From a virus (Duplodnaviria > Heunggongvirae > Uroviricota > Caudoviricetes): a stretch of 4,604 nt of DNA. Both the position numbers and the translations under genes were made by a program. The stretch lies in the IMG/VR virus record IMGVR_UViG_2690316347_000014, positions 1-4,604 of that record; one strand, given 5' to 3'. The first letter of the stretch is position 1; every line of letters starts with the position of its first letter. Shown piece by piece: positions 1,445-1,798 of this stretch. Under the pieces are notes generated by a model, which was not told the DNA's origin, made no database searches, and worked only from the letters and a program-made list of their open reading frames with translations.

Positions 1445-1798
1445 GGTCCGTTACCCCCTGAAGCCTGGCGGGATCGCACTGTCCGGCAACGAGACGGTGT
1501 TAACCTGTCGGAGCAACGTCTCAGGCCGAACACCTTTCGGCGCGAACAGGCCCTGGTATTCATTGGCGATGCTGTGTCGAATCACCTGCTCAGGTGTAAA
1601 ACCCTGCTGACGGAATTTTTCCAGTTCCCGTATCGCCCCGTTAGCGCCCTGCTCCGTTCGAATCGGTTTTCGCAATGCCTGTCTGAACCGGACCCACTCA
1701 TGCCAGAGTGTTTCCGGCAACCAATCGGGCAGCTCAATAGCCTCCGGCTCGAATTTTTTAGACGCTCGTTTTTGGCGAGGGGGAGATCAGTATTTAGA

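Follow-up and report, generated by a model that had tools for sequence, protein, structure and literature searches.

Two frame-disrupting lesions in a ydaU-like replication-initiator gene, very probably a pseudogene, of a Rac-like prophage remnant in Shigella sonnei

Lambda O-type initiators are modular proteins composed of a specificity N-terminal domain, a flexible acidic linker and a C-terminal domain facing the helicase-loading machinery, and the lambda ori is located inside the O gene. In the Rac prophage of Escherichia coli K-12 the initiator slot is occupied by YdaU (b1359), a DUF1376 protein, within a module that runs repressor, cro-like gene, ydaT, initiator and ydaV, the DnaC-like partner gene being placed 6 bp downstream of the initiator. 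The host itself carries the dnaT-dnaC operon, and the C-terminal domain of DnaT has been described to form a filament on ssDNA, by which the site of helicase loading is marked (PMC13377028). The locus analysed here keeps the Rac-type module with an initiator gene that is broken twice. It is very probable that the break at the boundary between linker and C-terminal domain is the second inactivating lesion in the initiator of an S. sonnei Rac-like prophage, and that the gene is an ordinary pseudogene.

The window, that is, the whole stretch of 4604 bp that was analysed, matches the complete S. sonnei chromosome CP044151.1 at 99.8% across all 4604 bp, and its gene order is that of a Rac-type lambdoid immunity/replication module. 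On the minus strand there are a DUF977 gene (683..261), ydaV (698..1444), the initiator (1451..2243), ydaT in two pieces (2742..2566 and 2626..2321) and a cro/ydaS-like gene (2953..2726). ydaV is an intact DnaC paralogue that shares 50% identity with E. coli DnaC along its whole length, and its homologues are annotated under the same name. The plus strand carries a DicA/RacR-like repressor (3030..3437) and a DUF1391-like ORF, followed by a 292-bp 5' fragment of IS600 (~3806-4097, with a truncated orfA of 77 aa) that is fused to a truncated gene for a Rha-family regulator (4095-4577), of which the C-terminal 160 aa are left. Between the internal IS600 fragment and the Rha remnant, the window lacks approximately 1.4 kb that intact E. 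coli relatives have, which points to an IS-associated deletion. Repressor, cro-like gene, ydaV and DUF977 gene are all intact in the window; besides the damage to the initiator and ydaT, the remnant is bounded by IS600 and has lost additional genes. Judged on its sequence, the locus is taken to be a dead, IS-riddled Rac-like prophage remnant in S. sonnei. Related to this, the window ends form a perfect inverted repeat (1-74 and 4531-4604) matching one end of IS600, and CP044151.1 contains full IS600 copies on both sides of the segment; because of these terminal repeats, the window resembles a complete short-read contig, ended on both sides by IS600 repeats.

The initiator pseudogene spans three reading frames and aligns end to end with intact E. 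coli CDSs. The preliminary description had reported a frame break between 1753 and 1786, beyond which a further -1 frame would encode the C-terminal domain, and three-frame translation of the minus strand reproduced both the break and the peptide strings exactly. Segment 1 (1935..2243, minus strand) encodes the N-terminal domain in the original frame and matches positions 1-102 of PHROG 2509 (E=1e-58); as it stands, its ORF runs to a premature stop at 1902 and ends after 113 residues. Break 1 is an A8 run on the coding strand (T8 on the plus strand; 1927..1934, minus), where intact genes have A6. Segment 2 (1785..1926, minus), delimited by three-frame translation and DNA alignment, encodes in the second frame a basic linker and a poly-Glu tract, the latter specified by the hexanucleotide repeat (GAGGAA)x5 (1801..1830, minus), and then the frame degenerates (...EEEEEEEEEEDLNTDLPLAKNERLKNSSRRLLSCPIGCRKH... 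/ ...DLPLAKNERLKNSSRR...). Break 2 (1778..1784, minus) falls within the interval reported, at the one TCCCCCT (AGGGGGA on the plus strand) that remains of two 7-bp direct repeats. Segment 3 (1451..1777, minus), in the third frame, encodes the C-terminal YdaU/DnaT-CTD-like domain, SPPRQKRASKKFEPEAIELPDWLPETLWHEW...PPGFRG, and includes the stop at 1451-1453; as had been noted, 6 bp separate this stop from the ydaV ATG at 1444. The C5, A5 and A6 runs described at the break were located on the coding strand at 1779-1783, 1769-1773 and 1754-1759, respectively.

The C-terminal frame is clearly coding, with matches to PHROG 6451 (E=7e-36) and PHROG 678 (E=1e-23) and to 3010 cluster representatives at E<=0.001 in an exhaustive search. 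It had been said to lack a start and a Shine-Dalgarno sequence. This frame contains no ATG or GTG, and the first codon able to serve as a start is a TTG at 1720, which has no Shine-Dalgarno sequence and falls within the conserved LPDWLP motif.

The nature of both lesions was established by DNA alignment of the window gene to four intact homologues and by an affine-gap pairwise comparison with FDAARGOS_944, the closest intact E. coli locus. The two comparisons agree at break 2, where intact genes read GATC-TCCCCCT-AAA-TCCCCCT-CGCC and the window reads GATC-TCCCCCT-CGCC; 10 bp have thus been lost, namely one copy of the direct repeat together with the 3-bp spacer. The undamaged sequence at this point is, in full, TCCCCCTAAATCCCCCT, and at the protein level ...DLNTDLPLNPPRQKR... 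has become ...DLNTDLP/LAKNER... In length, the A5, the A6 and each C5 run do not differ from those of intact genes. Break 1, on the other hand, consists of two bases gained (A6 to A8). One gene broken twice is therefore what the alignment recovers, since intact relatives have a single ORF where the window has a +2 and a -10 lesion. The two breaks had been described as single-base losses in the same direction: the direction was right, because +2 and -10 each equal -1 modulo 3, and for the same reason a 2-bp gain and a 10-bp deletion could be taken for two losses of one base.

Over 3733 bp, the comparison with FDAARGOS_944 gave 9 substitutions and 4 indels, and none of the substitutions lies in the initiator gene. 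In silico repair, in which AA was removed and TAAATCCCCC re-inserted, yields an ORF of 266 aa that is the intact protein except for the length of the poly-Glu tract. As this repair regenerates the intact protein, the decay is recent. The third length difference within the gene is in frame, the window carrying two additional GAGGAA units. Copy number of this unit is polymorphic: intact E. coli alleles have 2, 3 or 5 units, the two E. coli loci with the A8 run only have 4, sonnei-type loci 4-6 and the window 5. Besides, ydaT has suffered a 1-bp deletion at 2705 (coding strand GTTAGCCC to GTTGCCC), outside any homopolymer, which yields ORFs of 58 and 101 aa; an intact ydaT of 140 aa is present in FDAARGOS_944 and in L008, one of the two A8-only loci. 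On this comparison ydaT is a second pseudogene beside the initiator, with its own independent lesion.

The locus was found with at least 80% query coverage in 679 of 5426 complete E. coli genomes. The intact homologues inspected are single CDSs of 262-266 aa (one record naming a "phage replication initiator YdaU family protein"), with DNA identities of 97-99% for those aligned and 93-99% across the close set. In a survey of alleles, A6 and both TCCCCCT repeats occur together in 7 intact alleles; A8 with both repeats kept was found in two E. coli NCTC assemblies (L008 and L009); and A8 with the 10-bp deletion was found in all six sonnei-type loci sampled (L010-L015), which were retrieved through the exact 113-aa product, so that A8 is present in them by construction. 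Neither lesion was seen in the 5426 complete E. coli genomes: none has the A8 allele, and none crosses the junction without the 10-bp gap. An identical 113-aa product is recorded in 236 blocks; S. sonnei records (53G, Ss046 and FORC11 among others) and some E. coli records contain truncated products with exactly these sequences.

Several particular features were observed among these loci. The intermediate allele lies at locus positions 5001-5804 in L008 (GCA_900448845.1) and L009 (GCA_900449095.1); both loci carry an IS1 within the DUF977 gene, and the ydaT of L009 has a different truncation (83 aa). In L015 (positions 1158-3578), approximately 1.6 kb with two additional ORFs of 203 and 217 aa, neither of which gave a Pfam match, separates ydaV from the truncated piece of the initiator, and the module is partly duplicated downstream.

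The following history is proposed for the gene. The intact ancestor would have encoded one protein of 262-266 aa, made of N-terminal domain, basic/poly-Glu linker and C-terminal domain. Expansion of A6 to A8 (+2) would have come first, with translation ending at residue 113; slipped-strand mispairing of the 7-bp repeats in TCCCCCT-AAA-TCCCCCT would subsequently have cut out 10 bp at the linker/C-domain boundary, placing the C-terminal domain in the third frame and making a full-length initiator impossible. Slipped-strand mispairing is inferred here from the anatomy of the lesion, a repeat-flanked loss of 10 bp being its classic footprint. Because L008 and L009 have A8 and keep the 10 bp, the most parsimonious order is A8 followed by the deletion; assuming a single origin of A8, the deletion probably hit a gene that was already dead. 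At most the N-terminal fragment of 113 aa is predicted to be producible in the sonnei-type lineage, and the C-terminal domain would be left without a usable start and without its translational coupling to ydaV. With no full-length initiator possible, the prophage remnant could not fire its own origin and is predicted to be replication-dead.

What the intact gene encoded can be seen from its orthologues. Residues 1-262 of the intact orthologue match positions 1-277 of PHROG 2509, a "replication initiation protein" (E=1.2e-89), and the N- and C-terminal fragments of the window match opposite ends of this profile. The C-terminal 124 residues share 81% identity with residues 162-285 of K-12 YdaU. 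Neither the intact orthologue nor the window fragments gave a Pfam match to DUF1376 (PF07120) at E<=1, in a search in which K-12 YdaU, used as control, matched PF07120 at 2.7e-26; the Phage_rep_O N-terminal domain was likewise not matched in the initiator protein. The C-terminal domain appears to be homologous to the C-terminal ssDNA-binding domain of DnaT, as judged from phmmer matches (2RU8, E=9.5e-5; 9ZBT, E=3.2e-4) and from an hhalign comparison with DnaT residues 92-179 (probability 92.9%, E=3.6e-7, 86 columns), which is strongest in the tail, where VNTVSxPDSxIPPGFRG is near-identical between both proteins. With the NCBIfam DnaT model NF002770, whose cut-off is 201 bits, the score reaches 16-17 bits, and the match is limited to the last 19 residues; the DnaT match was lost in a profile search of PDB sequences, and a structure search started from a single-sequence model did not retrieve the DnaT fold, a three-helix bundle. 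The N-terminal domain probably recognises the origin, and the C-terminal domain may act on unwound ssDNA and on the machinery for YdaV/DnaB loading.

Three copies of a 19-bp palindrome, GTAACGCT-N3-AGCGTTAC, without strand, are found in and near the initiator gene, where 0.00 would be expected by chance: copy 1 (1856..1874) in the DNA coding for the linker, copy 2 (2065..2083, one mismatch) in that coding for the N-terminal domain and copy 3 (2257..2275) just upstream of the initiator ATG. All three are present in 14 of 14 loci with this type of N-terminal domain, and they are missing from the K-12 Rac locus, whose N-terminal domain is DUF1376, and from L007. In addition, 9 of the 16 GTAAC/GTTAC pentamers in the window fall within 1830-2285. 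The palindromes are candidate initiator-binding sites, or could mark an origin placed within the initiator gene, as lambda ori is in O.

Other explanations of the breaks have to be weighed against an ordinary pseudogene. Real decay and systematic homopolymer under-calling, which would create apparent frameshifts in an intact gene, had both been put forward in the preliminary description, and decay is the one that held. It is true that break 2 adjoins the C5, A5 and A6 runs and that break 1 lies within a homopolymer; nevertheless, under-calling is extremely improbable and was excluded, because the runs at break 2 are of normal length around a 10-bp loss, the only altered run is over-long instead of short, the ydaT indel lies outside any homopolymer and the same lesions recur in the six sonnei-type loci, the complete chromosome CP044151.1 included. 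By this recurrence in other assemblies, on which the window's own base calls depend, both lesions are considered real. Just as little probability is given to programmed recoding, or to a natural arrangement of two or three genes, in which the C-terminal domain would be made by frameshifting or separately. A8 runs can give low-level transcriptional or ribosomal slippage, but the C5 junction has no slippery heptamer X_XXY_YYZ, and the close homologues all have one ORF, with A6 and the additional 10 bp. A separate gene for the domain in an intact homologue would, according to the preliminary description, refute the break, and the close relatives have none. In the wider family, PHROG 18589, a profile of 156 positions, spans the C-terminal domain only, and 19 of the 150 best representatives (of 3010) are short, with the domain starting within the first 40 residues. 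However, several of the short matches are partial records or pieces of pseudogenes, the sole in-frame start here is the TTG inside LPDWLP, and in 120 of these 150 best representatives (median protein length 278 aa) the domain begins at least 100 residues into the protein; elsewhere it is fused to N-terminal domains of the DUF1376, Phage_rep_O or T5orf172 type, or to none recognised. Since in most of these 150 it lies deep inside longer proteins, its normal state is that of a part of a modular fusion and not of a separate gene.

A further possibility accepts the lesions as real and supposes that they were selected, a trapped, non-excisable prophage still able to fire its origin or to express ydaT being harmful to the host. 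The locus offers some reasons for it: the nine substitutions in 3.7 kb that separate the window from the nearest intact locus are accompanied by three frame-disrupting indels, all of them in ydaT and ydaU, with repressor, cro-like gene, ydaV and DUF977 gene spared. In K-12, racR is essential since it represses the adjacent toxic gene ydaS (PMC5700373). The bounding of the remnant by IS600 copies points in the same direction. Nevertheless, three events do not suffice to test this, and the 10-bp deletion, which according to the proposed order hit a truncated gene, is most simply neutral. Shigella genomes generally accumulate pseudogenes, and S. sonnei is well known for gene decay. Selected inactivation is thus regarded as unlikely, although it deserves more credit than the artefact or recoding. 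An improbable extension of it is that the 113-aa fragment blocks the palindromes GTAACGCT-N3-AGCGTTAC in a dominant-negative manner, acting against related phage replicons, with the inactivation of both ydaT and ydaU selected so as to disarm the trapped prophage. If this were true, a fragment with a complete putative origin-binding domain would still be made in S. sonnei, and incoming or resident replicons would be blocked. The ordinary pseudogene, with ydaU dying by expansion of the A run and losing the 10 bp afterwards, remains the preferred reading.

Public records already contain the sequence of this cryptic-prophage pseudogene and its fragments. The result has some practical consequences. 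One frameshifted pseudogene is the appropriate annotation for the region, which several public S. sonnei records currently list as two or three hypothetical proteins, and its lesions should not be "polished" out as homopolymer errors. Besides, the A8 allele, the 10-bp-deletion allele and the GAGGAA copy number could act as lineage markers. As a by-product, the intact orthologues reveal an initiator of modular build, which combines a swappable N-terminal domain and a DnaT-like C-terminal domain, beside a DnaC paralogue, with candidate binding sites in its own gene.

Among the described systems, the intact orthologues are the closest to the window gene (WP_038340159.1 in FDAARGOS_944, the "ydaU" of Escherichia phage Rac MN652886, and PHROG 2509). 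They have 93-99% DNA identity to it and share with it the three palindromes and the neighbour genes, and they differ in having A6, both TCCCCCT repeats and one protein, whereas the window has A8 and one repeat. K-12 YdaU occupies the same module slot, with its partner gene likewise 6 bp downstream, and shares the C-terminal 124 residues, among them the PLNPPR motif, which extends across the deletion site. However, its N-terminal half is unrelated, DUF1376 being present in K-12 YdaU and not in the window gene, its locus lacks the GTAACGCT palindromes and, unlike K-12 YdaU, the window copy is a pseudogene. The likeness to lambda O lies in the modular build and in the binding sites within the initiator's own gene, which in the present case are candidates only. 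The same C-terminal domain stands on a Phage_rep_O N-terminal domain in P0086, and it is also found in the "O-like" PHROG 678, whereas the Phage_rep_O domain is missing from the initiator described here. Finally, the host dnaT-dnaC operon (K-12, L017) has the same gene order as initiator-ydaV. In the initiator the N-terminal domain of DnaT is absent and a putative origin-specific N-terminal domain stands in its place. Since its C-terminal domain is DnaT-like and the next gene is DnaC-like, the phage pair mirrors the host operon, and the intact module could be the phage equivalent of dnaT-dnaC in the host.
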